Source: an uncultured Candidatus Saccharibacteria bacterium (GTDB lineage Bacteria; Patescibacteriota; Minisyncoccia; Minisyncoccales; UBA10102). Taken from it: 64,000 nt of DNA. The translations under genes were made by a program, and so were the position numbers. Shown piece after piece: positions 5,482 to 40,674 of the stretch. Position 1 is the first letter of the stretch; each line of letters opens with the position of its first letter. The stretch lies in contig CAYHVI010000002.1 in the NCBI GenBank assembly GCA_964359655.1, positions 176-64,175 of the forward strand. Reading direction: 5' to 3'. The notes beneath the pieces were generated by a model. The model made no database searches. It saw only the letters and a list, made by a program, of their open reading frames with translations, and was not told the origin of the DNA.

Positions 5482-5799
5482 TTATGTTTCGATAGATGTA
5501 ATTTCTACTTCAGAGTAAGGCTGGCGGTGTCCTTTCTTTACTTGCTCACGCTTTTTCGCCTTATACTTGAATACCACCACTTTTTTGTTTTTTCCCTGCT
5601 TTAAGATTTTGCCTTTTACTTTAGCTCCCTGCACCAATGGCGTGCCAATTTCAATACTTTTATCGTTTTGAAGCAATAGTACCTCTGAAAATTCAACATC
5701 ACTCCCTTCTTCTTGGGCGAGTTTCTCTACTTTAATTTTCTTGCCGGGAGAAACCAAGTATTGCTTTCCCCCTGTTTTAATAATCGCTAATTCTGCCAT
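5482..5799 (-). CDS. rplU: Ribosomal protein L21
   Basis: MAELAIIKTGGKQYLVSPGKKIKVEKL is a typical L21 N-terminus. The internal ATG was chosen as start. Confidence 0.92.
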   Translation of the reverse strand: MAELAIIKTGGKQYLVSPGKKIKVEKLAQEEGSDVEFSEVLLLQNDKSIEIGTPLVQGAKVKGKILKQGKNKKVVVFKYKAKKREQVKKGHRQPYSEVEITSIET

Positions 5800-25965: not shown

Positions 25966-25968
25966 ATC

Positions 25969-26000
25969 TACGAATTACGAATCTGTACGAATATACGAAT
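25969..26000 (-). repeat. Array of 4 ATTCGTA heptamers ending 3 nt before the rplJ start codon
   Basis: Minus strand reads gtATTCGTAtATTCGTAcagATTCGTAATTCGTAgatATG. Confidence 0.8.
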
Positions 26001-33021: not shown

Positions 33022-33183
33022 TTACGCTGCCTTCCTCTTTCGGAGGGCTTTACATTTGAATAATCTTTCGAGTTGATGGAGTCGTCTCTCGCAGGGACCG
33101 CAGGGTTTTCTGTATTTTCTTGGGCATCCCATCAATTTCTGTCCAAGATTGATTATCTCTATTTCTTGAATCGCAAACATCAT
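33022..33183 (-). CDS. Basic Cys-containing mini-protein (53 aa), below the ORF-track cutoff
   Basis: SD AAGGAGAGGGGG precedes the ATG. Translation: MMFAIQEIEIINLGQKLMGCPRKYRKPCGPCERRLHQLERLFKCKALRKRKAA. Terminator 32984-33011 follows. Confidence 0.5.
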   Translation of the reverse strand: MMFAIQEIEIINLGQKLMGCPRKYRKPCGPCERRLHQLERLFKCKALRKRKAA

Positions 33184-33229
33184 TGCCCCCTCTCCTTATC
33201 CGATTTATTGAACGAACCAAAACAAAAAT

Positions 33230-33244
33230 CCAGCCCGCGGCTGG
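33230..33244 (-). terminator. Leader hairpin plus U-tract inside the 5' leader of the 53-aa ORF
   Basis: CCAGCCgcgGGCTGG followed by ATTTTTGTTTTGG on the minus strand. Confidence 0.5.
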
Positions 33245-33277
33245 AGTGCTATTGCGAAATGCCTTATCGTATTTCTC

Positions 33278-33364
33278 TTATGCAAAAGTCGCAACAAAAA
33301 TCTCACAGCCGGAAGGGCCTTGGAGACATGCACAGCCACAGCATGAAGAAATAATATAAGACAT
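33278..33364 (-). CDS. Leaderless Cys-rich mini-ORF (28 aa), candidate leader peptide
   Basis: ATG lies 7 nt after TATACT (promoter TTGACA 33394-33399, 16-nt spacer). Translation: MSYIISSCCGCACLQGPSGCEIFVATFA. Confidence 0.45.
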   Translation of the reverse strand: MSYIISSCCGCACLQGPSGCEIFVATFA

Positions 33365-33402
33365 TACGATCAGTATACTCGTTCAGAATTGCTTGTCAAC
33401 CC

Positions 33403-33457
33403 CAGAAAAAAATTGGGTGGAACTTCTTTGATTCTTTGAATCATTGAGGTTCCACCC
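33403..33457 (-). terminator. Rho-independent terminator of the DAHP synthase gene
   Basis: GGGTGGAACC...GTTCCACCC followed by AATTTTTTT on the minus strand. Confidence 0.75.
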
Positions 33458-33466
33458 TTACGGAAG

Positions 33467-34486
33467 TTACGCTTTGCGGTTTATCACAGCCCTGATTGGC
33501 CTAACCTGATCCATCATATTCGCGAAGTTCTCGAAGGTCAGCGACTGCGCGCCGTCGCACTTGGCGACGTCAGGGTTGGGATGCACCTCGACGATGAGGC
33601 CGTCGGCCCCCACTGCCGTCCCAGCCATTGCCAGCGGCGTCACCAGATACCACTTGCCGGTGCCGTGGCTGGGGTCAACGACGACGGGCAGATGGCTCAG
33701 CTTGTGGATTACCGGGATGGCGTTGAGGTCCAGGGTGTTGCGGGTGTAGGTCTCGAAGGTGCGGATGCCCCGCTCGGTCAGGATGACCTGATGGTTCCCC
33801 TCCTTCATCACGTACTCGGCGGCCAGGAGCCAGTCCTCGTAGGTGGCCGCGAAGCCCCGCTTCACCATCACGGGCTTGTCGGTCTTGCCCACCTCGTCCA
33901 GCAGGGGGAAGTTCTGCATGTTGCGAGCGCCGACCTGGAGCACGTCGGCGTAGCGATAGACCATCTCCACGTCGTTGGGCGACATGACCTCGGTGATGAT
34001 GGGCAGGCCGGTCTCCTGGCGGGCCTCGGCCAGTATCTTCAGCCCGTCCTCGCCCATGCCTCGGAAGCTGTAGGGGGATGTCCGAGGCTTGTAGGCCCCG
34101 CCGCGCAGCACCTGAGCGCCGGCCGCCTTGACCGCCCTGGCCGTCGTCAGCACCTGCTCCTCGTTTTCTACGGCGCAGGGGCCGGCGAACACTGCAAAGT
34201 GGCCCCCGCCGATCTTCACGCCATTGTCGCTTATGGTAACGATGGTATCCTCGGCGGAGAACTCGCGGCTAGCCAGCTTGTAGGGCTTGGATACGCGGAA
34301 CACCTCGCTCACGCCGCGCATCAGTTGAAGCTCATCCTGAAGCTCTGGGTACACCTGCCCCAGGACGGCCACGACCCTGCGCTCCACGCCGACGTTGAGC
34401 TGTCCCCGAAGTCCTTTCTCGGTTAAATGCCTTTGAACCCGTTCAATGTCTCCATTGCTCGCTCCTCTACCCATTACGACGATCAT
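33467..34486 (-). CDS. 3-deoxy-7-phosphoheptulonate (DAHP) synthase, type I-beta with N-terminal ferredoxin/ACT-like regulatory domain
   Basis: 339 aa from the ATG after AGGAGG. Translation MIVVMGRG...[10 protein letters not shown]...GPCAVE...[19 protein letters not shown]...VDPSH is co-linear with the Thermotoga-type enzyme. The gene is visibly GC-rich. Confidence 0.92.
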
Positions 34487-34585
34487 TCTCTTCCTCCTAA
34501 GTGCCACACTTCACTATCTGTAAAGCGCTAGAGATTATAAGTTTTTCTCTAGCGATGATTTTCAGAGACTAAAGACCATCGCTAA

Positions 34586-34623
34586 AGCTAAACGAAAACT
34601 CCGGCCGCTGTCGGCCGGAGTTT
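34586..34623 (-). terminator. Attenuator terminator in the DAHP synthase leader
   Basis: AAACTCCGGCCGacagCGGCCGGAGTTT followed by TCGTTT. Its left arm and loop (GCCGACAGCG) are complementary to CGCTGTCGGC inside the leader ORF (34674-34683). Confidence 0.7.
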
Positions 34624-34646
34624 AGTATCTTTAGAAAACTATGAGC

Positions 34647-34727
34647 TTATGCTCGTTTGGATACCAAAATCTTGCCGACAGCGTCGGTAAAGAAATAAAA
34701 GTATCCAAAGAATTGCTTCAAACCCAT
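34647..34727 (-). CDS. Phe/Tyr-rich leader peptide (26 aa)
   Basis: Own translation: MGLKQFFGYFYFFTDAVGKILVSKRA. Five Phe and two Tyr fall within 8 residues. The ATG lies 9 nt after the -10 box. Confidence 0.6.
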   Translation of the reverse strand: MGLKQFFGYFYFFTDAVGKILVSKRA

Positions 34728-34736
34728 ATTATGTAC

Positions 34737-34764
34737 AGTATACGCGATCAAGAGATGCTGTCAA
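34737..34764 (-). promoter_or_regulatory. Sigma70-type promoter of the DAHP synthase unit
   Basis: TTGACA, 16 nt, TATACT on the minus strand. Confidence 0.65.
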
Positions 34765-34858
34765 GACCAGAAGTGCTCGCACGGCAGAGATAGTTTCTCT
34801 TGCGAGAAACAGGAGAGAGTCTCGTACCGTGAGAGCGCTTCTAGTCCCGATGAAGAAA

Positions 34859-34887
34859 TTGACACCAGTCCTACACATTTCTATAAT
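34859..34887 (+). promoter_or_regulatory. Perfect-consensus divergent promoter
   Basis: TTGACA, 17 nt, TATAAT on the plus strand. The ATG at 34897 lies 9 nt after the -10 box. Confidence 0.65.
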
Positions 34888-34896
34888 GGAAGCATT

Positions 34897-35076
34897 ATGT
34901 GGATAATCAAGTGTGACATATGCAAGCGGCAAATTAAAGACGATTCCATAAAAGTGGGGCTTGGATTCTCGAAACGATTAGAGTTATGTCAAAAATGTGG
35001 GGCTCCGATTCTGCAATTTCTTAAAAAGAGCAAAGTTATAGAAGCTAAAGAGGAATCAAAACTCTATGGCATATGA
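34897..35076 (+). CDS. Zinc-ribbon mini-protein (59 aa), just below the ORF-track cutoff
   Basis: Own translation: MWIIKCDICKRQIKDDSIKVGLGFSKRLELCQKCGAPILQFLKKSKVIEAKEESKLYGI. Overlaps the next ORF by 11 nt. Confidence 0.5.
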   Translation: MWIIKCDICKRQIKDDSIKVGLGFSKRLELCQKCGAPILQFLKKSKVIEAKEESKLYGI

Positions 35077-35395
35077 TATCAAACAAATCATTGAGGAAAC
35101 CGCAAAGAAAACTGGGGAAGAAGTAAAACATCACATGGATGTGGTTGCTGAAGATTTGAAGGGGCAAATTCAGCAAGTTGCTGAAGGTGTTGTCGTTGCG
35201 AATGATCGGCTGGATCGTTTGGCAGAACTTCCTGATAAGGTTGATGCAATAAGAGATGATGTGGAGGTAATAAAGATTACTCTCGGGACCATTAAGAATG
35301 ATCTCAAGCAGAAGGTTGATCGCGATGAATTCGTTACTCTCGAAAAACGTGTAAGCATGCTCGAAGTAAGACTCAATCGCAGCACGCCCGCCTAA
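35066..35395 (+). CDS. Hypothetical coiled-coil protein, 109 aa
   Basis: Heptad-rich acidic sequence, translationally coupled to the 59-aa ORF. Confidence 0.5.
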   Translation: MAYDIKQIIEETAKKTGEEVKHHMDVVAEDLKGQIQQVAEGVVVANDRLDRLAELPDKVDAIRDDVEVIKITLGTIKNDLKQKVDRDEFVTLEKRVSMLEVRLNRSTPA

Positions 35396-35557
35396 TTTTT
35401 GAATTTTTCAAAGAACACTTCGACTCAATTCGTTCGCTTACTATAAACTCTCTCGAATCTCGTAAATCTACAACTCTGTTTGTTCTAAACTTGCGAGATT
35501 TTTGGAGCCTGGATGAAAATCTTGACTTCTGTTTCGATTAAGATAGGATATTCTTAT

Positions 35558-35851
35558 ATGGTAAAGAAAGTTCAAGCTAAGATTTTAAATTATCGGGTAA
35601 TCATTGAAAAGGAATATTATCCAGATGGCACTCCGGTATATACTGCTTTTGTTCCAACACTGGGAGTTGCTGATTATGGTCCAACCATTGATAAAGTGTT
35701 AAAGAGCTTGAAAGACGGTATTGAACTTGCAATTGAATGTCTCGTTGAAGAAAGAAAAGAAGTGCCCGTCGACAAAGTAGAGGAAACAATGGTTGTCCAT
35801 ACCCAGGTTTTGGCTCCAAAAAGCGCAAGGCTCGTATCTGCTTTAAAGTAA
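35558..35851 (+). CDS. hicB: HicB-like antitoxin (UPF0150 fold)
   Basis: MVKKVQAKILNYRVIIEKEYYPDGTPVYTAFVPTLGVADYGPTIDKVLKSLKDGIELAIE. Promoter is TTGACT, 16 nt, TAGGAT, with the ATG 8 nt after the -10 box. Confidence 0.7.
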   Translation: MVKKVQAKILNYRVIIEKEYYPDGTPVYTAFVPTLGVADYGPTIDKVLKSLKDGIELAIECLVEERKEVPVDKVEETMVVHTQVLAPKSARLVSALK

Positions 35852-35858
35852 AGCGTTA

Positions 35859-36080
35859 ATGAAATTTCCCTCGGACATTAAGCCAAAAGATGTCGTAAGA
35901 ACTTTGGAAAAGTTTGGTTTCCAAAGATATAAGAGCAAGGGTAGTCATCTTTATTTTCGACATCCGGACGGCAGGTGGACTCAAGTTGCAGTTCATCCAA
36001 AACCTATTCCCATGGGAACACTAAGGAAAATTCTTAATCAAGCGGAAATTGCACCTGAAGACTTCTTAAAACGCCTTTAG
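35859..36080 (+). CDS. hicA: HicA-family mRNA interferase toxin
   Basis: KPKDVVRTLEKFGFQRYKSKGSHLYFRHPDGRWTQVAVHPKPIPMGTLRKILNQAEI is a typical HicA/YcfA sequence. Confidence 0.8.
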   Translation: MKFPSDIKPKDVVRTLEKFGFQRYKSKGSHLYFRHPDGRWTQVAVHPKPIPMGTLRKILNQAEIAPEDFLKRL

Positions 36081-36089
36081 CTAACTTTT

Positions 36090-36335
36090 CTTTTTTCTCC
36101 TTCCGGACAATCAAGCCTCCCTTCACTTCGTTCAGGGTAAACTCTTAATCCCTGTTGCTGGAAGAACTCATTCGGCCAAAGAAATTTTATTTGAAGGTAC
36201 TTTGTTTTTCCTTTCACAGTGCACAACTTTCTGTTATGCACTCTGGTAGGATGGGCAAGGTTTGTTTGTAGGGAGTACTTTCGGTACTGTTCAAACCTCT
36301 CTTGCCCTAAAGGATATTCGGTTTTCCGGAGAGGC
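36090..36335 (-). repeat. Structured-leader family, copy A (diverged, no downstream ORF)
   Basis: Shares TTCTCCTTCCGGACAATCAAGCC, a CTCATTCGGCCAAAGAAATT-type segment, and a long outer stem GGGCAAG...CTTGCCC with copies B and C. Confidence 0.5.
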
Positions 36336-36709
36336 TAGTCTACAAAGGCCTCTACCGGCTCCTTTACCACGCCGTCCGTAGACGACGCGGTGTATACCTG
36401 TAGGTCCTCGTCCTCCTCGACGAGGTCACCTGCGGGTTCCTCCACTTCCTCGAAGTGGAAGTGGATGTTGACGACCGTGGTGGGGACGGGGATCGCGGGC
36501 CTATTGATCCAGGCCAGCACCACGGGGACCACTAGCGCCCCGAAGACGATGGCGGCCACTAGGCCTAGTCCCACTACCACCGTCCCGAGGGTGGCGATGG
36601 GCAGGACATCTTGCATGAGATCGGGGCTTAATCCCCGACTCATGAGCCCTATGAACACCGCGGCCATAGCGGCCGCAACAAAGATGATTAGTTTTCCTCG
36701 TGTGGACAT
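36335..36709 (-). CDS. Hypothetical GC-rich membrane protein with an acidic C-terminal tail, 124 aa
   Basis: SD GGAGGTGGA precedes the ATG. Translation starts MSTRGKLIIFVAAAMAAVFIGL..., with 2-3 TM segments and a tail EEVEEPAGDLVEEDEDLQ. Confidence 0.6.
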   Translation of the reverse strand: MSTRGKLIIFVAAAMAAVFIGLMSRGLSPDLMQDVLPIATLGTVVVGLGLVAAIVFGALVVPVVLAWINRPAIPVPTTVVNIHFHFEEVEEPAGDLVEEDEDLQVYTASSTDGVVKEPVEAFVD

Positions 36710-36721
36710 TTTGTCCACCTC

Positions 36722-36915
36722 CTGTCAAATTCCCTTCGGGATTTCTCCTTCCGGGTAGTCAAGCTCTTACAATTTTCGAGACTCTTTTGCCTGATTGCCC
36801 GAAAGGAATTTATTTCAATGTACTTTCCAACATTTCAGCCCTGCAAGAAGTCGAAGGGCTCAAGTATTGGGGCGAGTCGAGAATCATACATGATTTTCTC
36901 AACTCGCCCTCGCCA
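36722..36915 (-). repeat. Structured-leader family, copy B (5' leader of the 124-aa ORF)
   Basis: Minus-strand hairpins GGGCGAGUUG...CGACUCGCCC, GAGCCCU...AGGGCU and CCUUUCGGGCAAUCAG...CUUGACUACCCGGAAGG. Confidence 0.55.
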
Positions 36916-37191
36916 TCCTGCCGCGCTGGGTCAGGGCCTTGCTATTTCTCCCACACACGGTGTGTGGGTCTCATAGCAGCGAGCTGAACACTAATTCTCT
37001 TTGGATCTCTGTAATGAATCAATAAACTTGAAGATCAGATTAACTAATGTTCACTTCGTTGCTATGAATGTTTTGAAAAGAACTGTTTTAAACTCCCTGC
37101 CCCGTACTAATTTTGTTTTGCAAAATTTAGTACTGGGGTCTCGAATCTCGTAAATCGAGAACTTTTTTGTTCCAGACTTAAGATATTCTTG

Positions 37192-37234
37192 GAGCCTGGG
37201 GAAGGTAGCGCTTTCGCACTCCTTCCCCAGGCTC
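37192..37234 (-). terminator. 14-bp hairpin after the 110-aa ORF (no clear U-tract)
   Basis: GAGCCTGGGGAAGG...CCTTCCCCAGGCTC. Confidence 0.5.
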
Positions 37235-37239
37235 GCTTG

Positions 37240-37572
37240 TTAGGCGGAGGGTTCCGTCGTTGTTGCCTTTGCAGCGACTTCCTCCGTGGTGATGGTGATC
37301 TGCTCGCGGGCGTTCTCAAGCGCTCCCATGAGGGAAAGCAACCTGGCCGTCTCCACAGAAGCCATCTTGACCTCCACGATTTTAGGAGCGATTATATTTA
37401 TCTCTGCATCTTTCAATTGCGCGACGCAGAGAGTGATCGCTGTCAAATCTCGCGGGCTGAAGTTTTGCCTTTGTGTGGTGATCTGACCGGCACCGATATC
37501 CTTAAAACTCACCTTATATAGCCTTACTGTTGTACTGTTCTCTTCTTTTTGAAGGTCAACGATGAACTGCAT
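37240..37572 (-). CDS. Hypothetical 110-aa protein
   Basis: SD AGGAGG, 5 nt, ATG. Translation starts MQFIVDLQKEENSTTVRLYKVSFKDIGAGQITTQRQNF... Preferred over the antisense plus-strand ORF 37189..37521. Confidence 0.55.
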   Translation of the reverse strand: MQFIVDLQKEENSTTVRLYKVSFKDIGAGQITTQRQNFSPRDLTAITLCVAQLKDAEINIIAPKIVEVKMASVETARLLSLMGALENAREQITITTEEVAAKATTTEPSA

Positions 37573-37599
37573 TTTTTCCTCCTGGCGTCTTTGCGCCTA

Positions 37600-37800
37600 T
37601 AAAATGCCGGGCTAGGATTTCTCCTTCCGGACAATCAAACCTCCGCATAAGTCGAAGGACTGATTGCCCGAAAGGAATACTTGTCCTGAGCGTAGTCGAA
37701 GGATTTCAATGTACTTTCCAATATTTCAGCCCTGAACGAAGTCGAAGGGCTCAAGTATTGGGGCGAGTCGGTGATCCTAAGGATCTTCGCAACTCGTCCA
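37600..37800 (-). repeat. Structured-leader family, copy C (5' leader of the 110-aa ORF)
   Basis: Same three-hairpin layout as copy B. The distal part of hairpin 1 has a different sequence but still pairs (GAUCCUaAGGAUC versus AAUCAUguAUGAUU). Confidence 0.55.
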
Positions 37801-38127
37801 CGCTGGGGTTACTACATAGTAACCTCCTTTCTTCTCCTCGATTTCCTATAAGGAACCTAGAATACCAACATTATCCTGGATTCCTTCTTCAAGCTCACAA
37901 TGCGTGTTGCATTTTTTGCGTTCTTGAAGAAAGAATCCTTCACCCCTTATTTCATCTGCTTTATTATCTGTACCATGGTATTCTTAATGAAGTAGAATTG
38001 ATAACGTACTTTTCTCGATGCAATCTCTGAAATTCATGTCTTACTTTGAACTTCAGTGATTGGAGATCTCGGGTTGGCGTTGGCGCTCTGTTTTTAGATT
38101 TTGTTTTTGCCTTCCCGAGATCTCCTG

Positions 38128-38301
38128 CTACCGGCCTAGCGATGCCTTGAGCTTCGCTAAGCTCGGATCGCCGATGTCTATAATGTGCCCACACTGGGCA
38201 CATTCCCGGAACTCGCCGTAAATATCTCTGTTTTTTACCATGTCCCCTCGGCACCGGGGACATGCCTTGAAATTAACTTGGATGGAAGCCAGATGGAACA
38301 T
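38128..38301 (-). CDS. Zinc-ribbon mini-protein (57 aa), below the ORF-track cutoff
   Basis: SD GAGGAGG, 4 nt, ATG. Translation: MFHLASIQVNFKACPRCRGDMVKNRDIYGEFRECAQCGHIIDIGDPSLAKLKASLGR. Confidence 0.55.
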   Translation of the reverse strand: MFHLASIQVNFKACPRCRGDMVKNRDIYGEFRECAQCGHIIDIGDPSLAKLKASLGR

Positions 38302-38500
38302 GAGTCCTCCTCATTTTTTATTGAGCGCCCCGATGACCCTTACCCGTCATCGGGATGCTCACGGAGGTTTCTAGGTTCTTCTGTCCCTACGCCTTAGTCT
38401 ACATTTCATCTCTTGATCTTTTGTCTTTTAATCTAGACTTAGGTTTAGGGATGAGGGGTACGCGCAGATTTCTCCGTCGCGTCCCCTCGCCCTTTGGTCT

Positions 38501-38815
38501 TTACTTCCGTAAGACCTGTTCCTTCAATTCTGGATTGACGCTAACGTGCAGCCGCACGTCAGGTGGTCCAGAGTCCCCGAGTCTGGGGACAGAGGTGGAC
38601 TTTGTCACGTGTCCGAGAACCTGCCCCAACCTTGAAACCGTACAGAGAACTTCACCTGTTATGATTGCGTTCTGTACTATCATCGGCTCCACTGTTGACC
38701 ATGGAACCCTGAAGTCGGTTTCGGTTGTTGGGTGAATGGTTACACCCACTTTTCCCGCATCTTCGCGGAATGCTGCTTGAATCCCCTCAGGGAGACTATC
38801 GAAATAGAACGACAT
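38501..38815 (-). CDS. Hypothetical 104-aa protein
   Basis: SD AAGGAGGAAACG precedes the ATG. Translation starts MSFYFDSLPEGIQAAFREDAGKVGVTIHPTTETDF... Promoter TTGACA, 17 nt, TATACT at 39028-39056, with a ~205-nt leader. Confidence 0.55.
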   Translation of the reverse strand: MSFYFDSLPEGIQAAFREDAGKVGVTIHPTTETDFRVPWSTVEPMIVQNAIITGEVLCTVSRLGQVLGHVTKSTSVPRLGDSGPPDVRLHVSVNPELKEQVLRK

Positions 38816-39165
38816 CGTTTCCTCCTTCTTAAATATGCTTTCCCTTCTAATGACTTTGCTTGTCGTCAGAAGGCAGAGCACACTCATCTATAAGCACAAC
38901 AGCCCTCTTTGGGAGAGCTGTGTGGTTTAACGTACTTCTGTCTTAAATATAGATAGGCAAGTTTAGCTTTATTTTGGCCTCTCCCTGACCAATAAGCTTG
39001 TATATTCAATTTTCACTTTACTCTCATAGTATAGCATACTTCTAAAAAAATGTCAAGGGTTTTGTGGAGGGAACAAAAAACGCCCTATTTTGGCGGTTCT
39101 TATGTGGTTTGGTGTAGATTGATGGGGAGAGGAGAAGCGGTTCGCTCACTTCTCCTCTCCCTCTG

Positions 39166-39357
39166 TTAGACGACGCGGGTGATCTGCCCGGTTACCAGAT
39201 CTAAGGCGTATTGAGGAACCTTGTATCCCGGAGGAAGCTTGCCGCCAAAGCGGTAATTGGTCATGGCTCGAAGGACTCTGTCGGCCTGCGACGACAAGCC
39301 GAATCCTAGAAATCCACCTCTCGCTCGGTATCTCTTAGATGCAATGTCTCCGCGCAT
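39166..39357 (-). CDS. Hypothetical 63-aa protein
   Basis: SD GTGGAGA precedes the ATG. Translation: MRGDIASKRYRARGGFLGFGLSSQADRVLRAMTNYRFGGKLPPGYKVPQYALDLVTGQITRVV. Promoter TTGACA, 17 nt, TATCAT at 39456-39484. Terminator hairpin at 39125-39161. Confidence 0.5.
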   Translation of the reverse strand: MRGDIASKRYRARGGFLGFGLSSQADRVLRAMTNYRFGGKLPPGYKVPQYALDLVTGQITRVV

Positions 39358-39494
39358 TTTTTTCTCCACTTAAAATTTTGGATTACATTGGGGGGTATTT
39401 AAAAACTCTCAAGGTGCTGCTCCTTTCTGCTTCCTGTGAAAGCTTAAATTTTTAAATGATAGCATCGCATAAAAGTCGTGTCAATAGCTGTAGA

Positions 39495-39522
39495 GAAAGA
39501 CCCCTTTCATGGAGGGTCTTTC
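39495..39522 (-). terminator. Hairpin terminator immediately after rpsP (right border of the island)
   Basis: GAAAGACCCTCCATGAAAGGGGTCTTTC on the minus strand. Confidence 0.65.
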
Positions 39523-39525
39523 TTA

Positions 39526-39909: not shown

Positions 39910-39975
39910 CCTACGAATTACGAATTTTTGCGAATTTACGAATTCGTATATTCGTACTTATTCGTTATTCGTAGG
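39910..39975. repeat. 66-bp imperfect palindrome built from ~8 TACGAAT/ATTCGTA heptamers between rnc and rpsP
   Basis: CCTACGAATTACGAATttttGCGAATtTACGAATTCGTAtATTCGTActtATTCGTTATTCGTAGG. Confidence 0.8.
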
Positions 39976-39981
39976 GGTGAT

Positions 39982-40674
39982 TTACTTCCAGCCCTTTTCT
40001 GCAAGCGCGTTTTTCGCGGCTGCTTCCTCTGCTTCTTGTTTGGAAGAACCCTCTCCTTCTGCCACAAGTTCTTTATCTAAATATATTCCTATGCGGAAGT
40101 TTTTGGCATGGTCTGGCCCCCATTCTTTCAATACTGTGTACGTGGGAGTAATGCCCATTTTCTCTTGTGCAATTTCCTGGAAACGAGATTTGGCGTCCAA
40201 AAACAATTCTGCCCTTAATACTTCTGCAAGTTTGGAGAGTATATGCTTTGTAATAAATTTCGCGGCATTTTTCAAGCCCTTGTCAAGATATAAGGCGCCG
40301 ATAAAAGCTTCCACGGTATTTGCCAAAATATAGTCTCGCGCTTTACCCTCTTCTTTTGCCTCGCCGTGAGAAAGCATTAAATACTCGTTGAAGCCCAAAT
40401 CGTGGCCAATTAAAGAAAGCATTTTGGTATTTACAAGAGCTGCGCGCCAGGCAGTAAGCTCGCCCTCGGGTTTTTCAGGATGCTCTGTGTATAAATGTTC
40501 TGTAACAACCAACTCGAGCACTGCATCTCCCAGAAATTCGAGGCGTTCATTCTGCGGGAGATGAAAGTCCCGGTTTTCGTTGAGATACGAGCGATGAACA
40601 AACGCTTGCTGGAGTAATTCTTTGTCTTTGAAGGGAAGTTTGAGTTTTGATTCGAGTTGAGAAAAATCAATCAT
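39982..40674 (-). CDS. rnc: Ribonuclease III
   Basis: Signature [16 protein letters not shown] plus a C-terminal dsRBD. Confidence 0.95.

Follow-up and report, generated by a model that had tools for sequence, protein, structure and literature searches.

A family of structured modules ahead of ORFan genes in a hypervariable array between rpsP and khpA of ultra-small groundwater bacteria

Introduction

Hairpins between neighbouring cistrons are known from several genetic systems. A complete integron needs the integrase IntI beside its cassette array, whereas a cluster of attC sites lacking integron integrases (CALIN) does not. The RNase III hairpins of phage T7 early mRNA and the intercistronic expression elements of plastids lie between cistrons and are cut to give stabilised, translatable monocistronic RNAs. 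In the hyperplastic regions of T4-type phages, small unrelated open reading frames (ORFs) are flanked by stem-loop regulatory motifs, the promoter-early stem-loops (PeSLs), which join a terminator stem-loop with an early promoter and act as points of homologous exchange (PMC2839356, PMC4122927). Here we analyse three related structured elements, designated A, B, and C, on a 64-kb stretch of contig CAYHVI010000002.1 from an uncultured Candidatus Saccharibacteria bacterium (the whole stretch is called the window below; the array and its modules are read on the minus strand), and compare their locus with these systems.

Our favoured reading, to which we give an even chance, places A, B, and C in a family of intercistronic modules that process the RNA, load ribosomes, and serve cassette exchange; the ORFan cassettes between which they lie form a hypervariable array between rpsP and khpA. 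The arrays occur in a clade of ultra-small groundwater bacteria (Patescibacteria), and the module family is apparently undescribed.

Results

Copies A, B, and C belong to a recurring module family

The three copies lie where the initial annotation of the window had placed them, at 36090-36335 (A), 36722-36915 (B), and 37600-37800 (C). B and C are clear homologues, with 91% identity over a 77-nt stretch and a fully identical 19-nt block in a repeat scan, and each runs, as had been described, into GGAGG and the ATG of an ORF, one of 124 aa encoding a membrane protein (B) and one of 110 aa (C). Three copies of a 21-nt block, TTTCTCCTTCCGGACAATCAA, are present in the 64 kb (exact in A and C, with three mismatches in B) and none in shuffled sequence; a window scan found two further shared blocks in B and C only. 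The status of A as a third paralogue holds in part: it has the 27-nt 3' block, the AAAGTACCTTCAAAT block, and hairpins at analogous positions, but little else in common with the others. As previously noted, A is without an ORF of its own and adjoins the hicA stop codon; in addition, five mismatches in the 5' arm of its long helix P3 break the pairing. A is a decayed module copy without a gene, and may represent the decayed terminus of the array, adjoining the convergent hicBA operon. All three copies fold more stably than shuffled sequences (z = -5.6, -4.4, and -4.0).

To place these copies in a wider context, we fetched the loci of relatives using RpsP homologues as anchors (L065, L066, L067, L068-L072, and L073-L076, the last from Candidatus Wildermuthbacteria, GCA_001824915.1). 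Related modules are present in six other lineages, including L016, whose P2 scores weakly, and in all related lineages the locus lies between rpsP and khpA, except in L016, a short contig that contains neither gene. This 1-kb contig, from another Hainich groundwater well, carries the counterpart of C: it retains the upstream region, P3, the small hairpin P4, the Shine-Dalgarno (SD) sequence, the post-ORF hairpin, and the following segment, but differs in having a 64-aa hydrophobic ORF instead of the 110-aa ORF and other first hairpins. The P3 arms of C and L016 are identical at 32 of 32 positions, against about 75% identity in the flanks. A type I toxin mRNA leader, brought to mind by the hydrophobic ORF of L016, was considered and dropped, since ORF110 and several other cassette proteins are soluble.

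Across the window and its relatives the module recurs in 18 units, ahead of most array ORFs, and its parts follow a constant order: P1, P2, an A-rich linker, optional long hairpins P3 and P4, the SD sequence, and ATG. P1 is a GC-rich hairpin that starts 1-39 nt past the previous stop codon and abuts P2. P2, a hairpin of roughly 20-25 bp, has a base of 15 bp that is conserved, constant internal mismatches, and a tip of 12-43 nt that varies freely; its 5' arm reads (C)CACACUUGAG, CCAAUACUUGAG, or CUACCCCUCAG, and its 3' arm CUGAAGCGUGGG, UUCAAGUGUG, or UUGAGGGGUAG. The linker (GGAAAGUAMAUUNAAAA) is unstructured and is the conserved unpaired part of the module, in which the hairpins are serial and independent, with no multi-stem junction. 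In simple units, 32-42 nt separate the end of P2 from the ATG. P3 is missing from most units. Where B, C, and L016 carry it, its 3' arm resembles an SD (CCGGAAGGAGAAA) and aligns with the working SD of simple units, GAAAGGAGAAGG-ATG; this alignment suggests that P3 developed between the linker and a former SD.

A fourth full module, overlooked in the initial annotation, lies farther upstream in the array and ends in GAGGAGG and the ATG of a 57-aa zinc-ribbon ORF. The family model matches it at 38362-38451 (43.7 bits, E=7e-10), and it was also found as an inverted repeat. Between this ORF and C, a further stretch, part of it also conserved in L016, may be a module whose ORF has been lost: it ends in AAGGAGG followed by AUG-UAG (37812-37817) and matches the model weakly (11.6 bits, E=0.8). 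The AUG-UAG is itself a start-stop mini-ORF, six bases past a strong AAGGAGG (37812-37829, minus strand).

A 20-nt mini-hairpin, CCCUUCGACUUCGCUCAGGG, is found at 28858-28877 (minus strand), 36120-36139, 36839-36858, 37645-37665, 37684-37703, and 37730-37749, that is, at the tips of P2 and P3 and in the gap separating tRNA-Tyr from tRNA-Thr. The copy at 28858-28877 was the only one outside the array in a window scan. The mini-hairpin is found in both orientations; it is flipped in A and in two units of relatives, L065 unit 1 and L069 unit 2.

Database searches placed the module in no known family. In keeping with the first reading, Rfam gave no match: with Rfam 15 at gathering thresholds only tRNAs pass in the window, and at E up to 10 the region 35800-38400 returned chance miRNA-like hairpin matches only, with the same outcome for the relatives' loci. 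Exact-pattern scans with the 21-nt block gave 8 matches on genome contigs, 8 on metagenome contigs, and 0 on viral contigs, all by chance except L016; a second block gave 32 matches on viral contigs, all by chance, and blastn against a phage collection gave none. The closest RpsP relatives (L054, L055, and L058) have no array and no match to the family model, and look-ups of the window's proteins returned only the same Hainich H51 population. The window belongs to a Patescibacteria metagenome-assembled genome of that well, GCA_038063155.1. Repeat scans likewise showed no features of miniature inverted-repeat transposable elements, namely no inverted repeat joining the unit ends and no flanking direct repeats. 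What had been suspected to be a genuine family is one: structured, gene-proximal, sense-oriented, and kept across lineages while the downstream ORFs differ.

The P2 and P3 helices are under selection

We assessed covariation at the base of P2 in 16 units. In this set 82.5% of cells are paired, and 11 of the 15 pairs show change on both sides; the covariation score is 0.413, compared with 0.213 in shuffles (0 of 500 reach the observed value) and a maximum of 0.167 in slid controls. On 23 distinct rows aligned by, and hence fitted to, the model, 82.6% of cells are paired, 48 cells are double-sided, and the score is 0.414 against 0.222. The P2 helix is under selection.

A covariance model, R1, was built without any Wildermuthbacteria sequence. 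In the Wildermuthbacteria array it finds five sense-strand copies (22.7-35 bits, E from 6e-8 to 2e-4), and nothing at a comparable threshold in the remaining 9 kb of that 19-kb locus. Over the 64-kb window its matches are confined to the array, with C, B, and the zinc-ribbon module at 44-53 bits and A weak. Elsewhere, a weak module-like match (16.6 bits, E=0.03) lies outside the array at L073 2151-2219, 3' of a 126-aa ORF and between thrS and dnaE.

Covariation emerges only when the comparison is widened to more distant relatives. The long helix P3 shows none across B, C, and L016, in which the 5' arm is identical; the P3 of C is, however, homologous to a helix in L069 unit 1, relative to which two pairs are changed on both sides (C-G to U-A and A-U to U-A) and a 2-bp difference in length is matched on both arms. 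This long helix, too, is under selection. The distal parts of P1, which had been described as compensatory, are replaced palindromes and not point covariation.

The orientation of the module relative to the genes is fixed, as given by the order P1-P2-linker-SD-ORF and by the A-rich linker; the helices alone do not tell RNA from DNA. The initial proposal that the stems are fully paired only on the minus strand applies to the long helix CCUUUCGGGCAAUCA/UGAUUGUCCGGAAGG, with two G-U pairs in C, but not to the other stems: on that strand, P2 of B and C contains a C.A and a G.G mismatch, and P1 of C an A.C mismatch. Whole-element energies on the minus and plus strands are -91.8 vs -90.2 kcal/mol for C and -74.0 vs -64.1 kcal/mol for B. 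Family-wide, the argument from strand-specific G-U pairing fails, with 16 G.U vs 18 A.C mismatches in P2. Sense folds are more stable than antisense folds in 15 of the 23 units, with a mean advantage of 6.5 kcal/mol (p=0.06). A purine-first polarity of P1 was tried as a strand marker and dropped, as both strands show it alike.

The array is most likely transcribed from a single promoter

Scans of the window and the relatives found one near-consensus promoter per array, at its head, and none within the arrays. In the window, the promoter at the array head is the sole near-consensus sigma-70-type promoter on the minus strand from 39028 to 34764, and no canonical terminator is present on that strand over 35300-38600, while elsewhere the genome's terminators consist of a hairpin and a U-tract. 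With one promoter at the head, none inside, and no terminator, ORF104, the 57-aa ORF, ORF110, and ORF124 most likely form one operon. To judge from these signals, the array is most likely one transcription unit, read from a single strong promoter via an attenuator-like leader, and B and C are most likely intercistronic. The copies are accordingly no longer read as three paralogous leaders of separate transcripts, since near-consensus promoters occur only at the array head. The alternative idea of a promoter/leader-carrying repeat comes close in spirit.

All the fetched loci other than those of Wildermuthbacteria carry this promoter sequence at the array head. The promoter CTTGACATTTTT..TATGCTATA(A/C)T lies just 3' of rpsP in L065, L066, L067, L069, and L070, and the relatives' arrays have no second consensus promoter before khpA. 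In the same five loci and in the window, the promoter is followed by an attenuator-like hairpin and a U-rich tail; over these six loci, 7 of the 11 pairs of the hairpin are changed on both sides. The leader sites lie at L065 1055-1135, L066 2885-2960, L067 1550-1650, and L069 2360-2440. Their segments, GGAGAGAGC / GCUCUCUCC / GGAGAGAGC, could form alternative hairpins, the last of which is followed by the U-rich tail, and the leader has no Rfam match. A transfer-messenger RNA (tmRNA) beside the array of relatives was also considered and rejected, there being only a weak Rfam match and no ARAGORN prediction; the weak match, to a tmRNA 3' end at 19 bits, falls between rpsP and the array promoter (L066 2661-2736 and L064 about 5540-5590).

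Cassette ORFs turn over while the modules remain

In the window the copies sit within a 9.4-kb island (30070-39525) inserted between rpsP and khpA-trmD, a distance that is 0.6-1 kb in two relatives. Each array comprises between 2 and about 12 small ORFs, all on one strand, to which no Pfam, PHROGs, or PADLOC family could be assigned, and the cassettes are promoterless, have one orientation, share a common promoter, and vary in content between strains. Arrays from different lineages showed no protein homology to one another. In a set of 5.8 billion protein clusters, ORF110 and ORF124 match only themselves, and the leaders therefore cannot be traced through their genes. Both ORFs have a coding-type GC pattern and a GC content above that of the host genome.

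Turnover can be followed directly between close relatives, where modules flank unrelated ORFs that have replaced one another (L070/L069 and C/L016). L070 and L069 are 99.6% identical downstream but have a swapped first cassette; the break falls in the attenuator loop, and identity returns at the P2 5' arm, on the border of P1 and P2, so that P1 travelled together with the ORF upstream of it. C and L016 have other breakpoints, which fall at the ATG and the stop codon and in the vicinity of P1-P2. The array ORFs of the window have 50-60% GC compared with about 43% in core genes, which resembles the higher-GC relatives, in which array ORFs have native GC; this likeness suggests that cassettes flow between lineages.

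Toxin-antitoxin or abortive-infection genes occur at or in the arrays, namely AbiEii at L073 9390-10236 and hicBA in the window.

Features of the array and its surroundings

The features of the array in the window are collected in Table 1. The hairpin that follows ORF110 is kept in L016, with changes in both arms. The hicBA pair is transcribed toward the array and ends against copy A, and a plus-strand promoter at 34859-34887 agrees with all 12 positions of the consensus.

Table 1. Positions of array features in the window, listed in the direction of array transcription.
Feature	Position	Strand	Details
Array promoter, TTGACA-17-TATACT	39028..39056	-	promoter scan
Attenuator-like leader	38888..38987	-	segment 1 CAGGGAGAGGCC, segment 2 CAGCTCTCCC, segment 3 AGGGCTG, U-rich tail TTGTGCTT
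First cassette ORF, 104 aa (ORF104)	38501..38815	-	no family match
Fourth full module	38302..38500	-	P1 (GGGCGAGGGGACGCG...), P2 38385-38449, long hairpin 38322-38361
Cassette ORF, 57 aa, zinc-ribbon protein	38128..38301	-	weak zinc-ribbon matches only; not on record in protein look-up
Possible empty module	37813..38125	-	hairpin 38062-38125; weak P2-like hairpin 37996-38065; 16-bp hairpin 37878-37938
Copy C	37573..37800	-	P1 37762-37799; P2 37718-37761; linker 37703-37717; mini-hairpin 37677-37702; P3 37622-37676; P4 37584-37597; SD 37578-37583; fold; family model 53.3 bits
Cassette ORF110, ORFan	37240..37572	-	GC at codon positions 1/2/3 = 0.50/0.40/0.59
Hairpin after ORF110	37139..37234	-	hairpin 37192-37234, followed by the reversed hicB segment 37139-37199; repeat scan
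Copy B	36710..36915	-	P1 36870-36908; P2 36827-36870; linker 36809-36826; P3 36746-36807 (3-nt internal loop); P4 36731-36741; SD 36716-36723; fold; family model 51.2 bits
Cassette ORF124, membrane protein, ORFan	36335..36709	-	GC 60%; codon positions 1/2/3 = 0.69/0.38/0.74
Copy A	36090..36335	-	P1 36253-36307; P2-like hairpin 36209-36251; linker; broken P3, 3' arm intact 36094-36120; inverted mini-hairpin 36120-36139; family model 15.8 bits (E=0.054)
hicB-hicA toxin-antitoxin pair	35513..36080	+	HicA_toxin E=1.9e-17

Several further observations concern the surrounding sequence. A segment of the hicB promoter and 5' untranslated region (35451-35512) is duplicated in reverse at 37139-37199, just past the ORF110 hairpin, with similarity stopping exactly at the hicB start codon; L016 has the same reversed arrangement at 222-310, beside a truncated hicA-like ORF. 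Within the rpsP-khpA island, the gene for 3-deoxy-D-arabino-heptulosonate 7-phosphate (DAHP) synthase (33467-34507, minus strand) has 63% GC and 0.83 GC at third codon positions in a genome of about 43% GC and looks like a recent foreign acquisition; a Trp-repressor-like gene lies near it (paired coordinates 32609-32920, minus strand). The island also uses the terminator hairpin GACCTCCCAGCTGGGAGGTC twice (31014-31035 and 31908-31928), a reuse of regulatory parts there too. A TACGAAT-rich palindrome at 39910-39975, between rpsP and rnc, the RNase III gene at 39982-40674, with related copies upstream of two other gene groups (25968-26000 and 28721-28753), may be a shared operator or promoter-region element. 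Finally, a 65-nt direct repeat (58422-58486 and 58930-58994, 97% identity) carries a TTGACATTTA promoter on the minus strand in each copy.

Discussion

The favoured reading of A, B, and C as intercistronic modules implies two roles, one in the RNA and one in the DNA. On a polycistronic RNA, the long helices P2 and P3 would be targets of an RNase III-type nuclease that is specific for double strands, with which the P2 length of about 20-25 bp and its internal loops are compatible. P1 would then be left as a protective 3' hairpin on the upstream cistron, and the linker and SD would load ribosomes onto the downstream cistron, such that each foreign or new ORF could be expressed and insulated independently. 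At the DNA level, the same modules may serve as homology arms for the exchange, loss, or duplication of cassettes.

Several points weigh against this proposal. The sample covers about seven lineages; the P2 arms that enter the covariation tests were picked from energy folds, and the units are related, with the kinship of paralogues left in the controls. The module does not accompany every gene, as some ORFs of the Wildermuthbacteria array have no detectable module, and the 320-nt spacer at 36916-37240 is without module features. Neither hairpin marks a strand: P2 mismatches show no bias, and P1 is purine-first in 16 of 17 units but with a polarity that is identical on both strands, so the helices could equally be selected as DNA hairpins. 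The modules may also contain non-consensus promoters.

A serious rival, if on balance an improbable one, is that the modules are attC-like DNA recombination sites of an integron-like system whose recombinase is encoded elsewhere, with site-specific insertion and excision behind a common promoter. The layout would suit it, with one strong promoter, promoterless same-strand ORFan cassettes, and inter-ORF hairpins that combine a conserved base with a variable tip, as would the toxin-antitoxin genes of the arrays (hicBA and the AbiEii of L073), the single cassette that differs between strains L070 and L069, the foreign GC of the window's cassettes, and P2 pairing without strand bias. However, no complementary RYYYAAC/GTTRRRY pair of attC cores 30-140 nt apart occurs in 36000-39100 or in the whole window. 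Nor is there an integrase in the island, where the largest ORF, of 346 aa, is the DAHP synthase, among the ten scanned ORFs of the window whose length is typical of integrases (294-467 aa), or in the relatives' gene tables. The exchange junctions, moreover, vary from case to case, and together with the missing cores and integrase this favours homologous exchange via the modules over site-specific exchange. We consider it less probable still that the modules are composite terminator/promoter units resembling PeSLs, in which P1 would end one transcript, the next would start, and B and C would be true 5' leaders. P1 does follow each stop codon, the modules do flank swapped ORFs, and a weak TTCAAA-17-GAGATT match upstream of C is conserved between the window and L016; but this genome and its relatives use near-consensus TTGACA/TATAAT promoters, none of which lies in any module, P1 is without the U-tract typical of the genome's own terminators, and P2 varies in length, so that no constant -35/-10 spacing could be kept across it.

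The initial suggestion of a ligand- or factor-sensing cis-regulatory leader, similar to a riboswitch, now appears very unlikely. It could draw on elements that are structured, conserved, upstream of ORFs, and unmatched in Rfam, and on a P3 5' arm (UCCUUUC) whose sequence might allow it to pair in two ways, with the SD-like 3' arm or with the true SD. Yet the downstream genes are mutually unrelated ORFans of no coherent function, the module is repeated ahead of most cistrons in one operon, most units have no P3, and conservation is highest in helices, the A-rich linker, and the ribosome-binding site, with a plain A-rich tract where a sensor would be expected to have a conserved multi-stem junction or an invariant unpaired core. 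Least probable of all, and largely refuted, is that the copies are neutral, decaying duplicates of a single intergenic region. That concern had been voiced from the start and is right for A, which is clearly decaying; it does not account for modules that are backed by covariation across about seven lineages next to unrelated ORFs, or for P3 arms that stay identical between C and L016 amid diverged flanks.

Going beyond the favoured reading of intercistronic modules, we tentatively suggest, as something possible but short of an even chance, that the rpsP-khpA locus is a previously unrecognised cassette platform, in which a fixed strong promoter and attenuator serve promoterless ORFan cassettes, each wrapped in modules that enable expression and exchange between lineages, giving an integron-like function without an integrase or attC. 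Patescibacteria have tiny genomes with little room for accessory genes, and a fixed swap site behind one promoter would offer them a compact route to innovation and exchange; if this holds, each captured gene would come pre-fitted with a conserved structured expression module. The modules form a new family of structured elements with measurable covariation, and their covariance model provides a handle for finding such arrays and their ORFan cargo in metagenomes. The module is, in addition, a candidate natural intercistronic expression element, and the attenuator-like leader at the array head is a separate regulatory candidate.

Comparison with known systems

Integron cassette arrays and CALINs, with their attC repeats (e.g., the VCRs of Vibrio), share with this locus a single upstream promoter, promoterless same-strand cassettes that are mostly ORFans, imperfect inter-ORF hairpins whose base is conserved and whose tip varies, toxin-antitoxin genes, and a content that varies between strains. 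Unlike them, the modules have no R''/R' cores and no IntI, their junctions fall at no fixed hairpin position, and the spacers hold two or more hairpins and a ribosome-binding region. PeSLs are similar in that conserved stem-loop elements flank small unrelated ORFs; the modules differ in being without a promoter consensus, in their greater length (100-300 nt), and in residing on a bacterial chromosome, not in a phage. The RNase III sites of T7 and the plastid elements resemble the modules as repeated internal-loop hairpins between the cistrons of one long transcript, which is here predicted, but there is no sequence similarity, and cleavage of the modules is likewise a prediction.

Other repeats and leaders are more distant. 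Those of the REP/BIME, BOX, ERIC, and Correia types are also modular, hairpin-forming intergenic repeats that can affect mRNA stability, and the mini-hairpin CCCUUCGACUUCGCUCAGGG behaves as a small palindromic unit of this kind; in contrast to them, the modules are found only in the array within the 64 kb, always in sense orientation, and one per ORF. Riboswitches and the leaders in Rfam are, similarly, structured RNA-like elements upstream of the SD, from which the modules are set apart by the lack of an Rfam match, of a coherent downstream function, and of an evident core resembling a ligand pocket. The modules are a member of none of these systems, and their closest analogues are the cassette arrays of integrons and CALINs, the PeSLs of T4-type phages, and the RNase III sites of T7.

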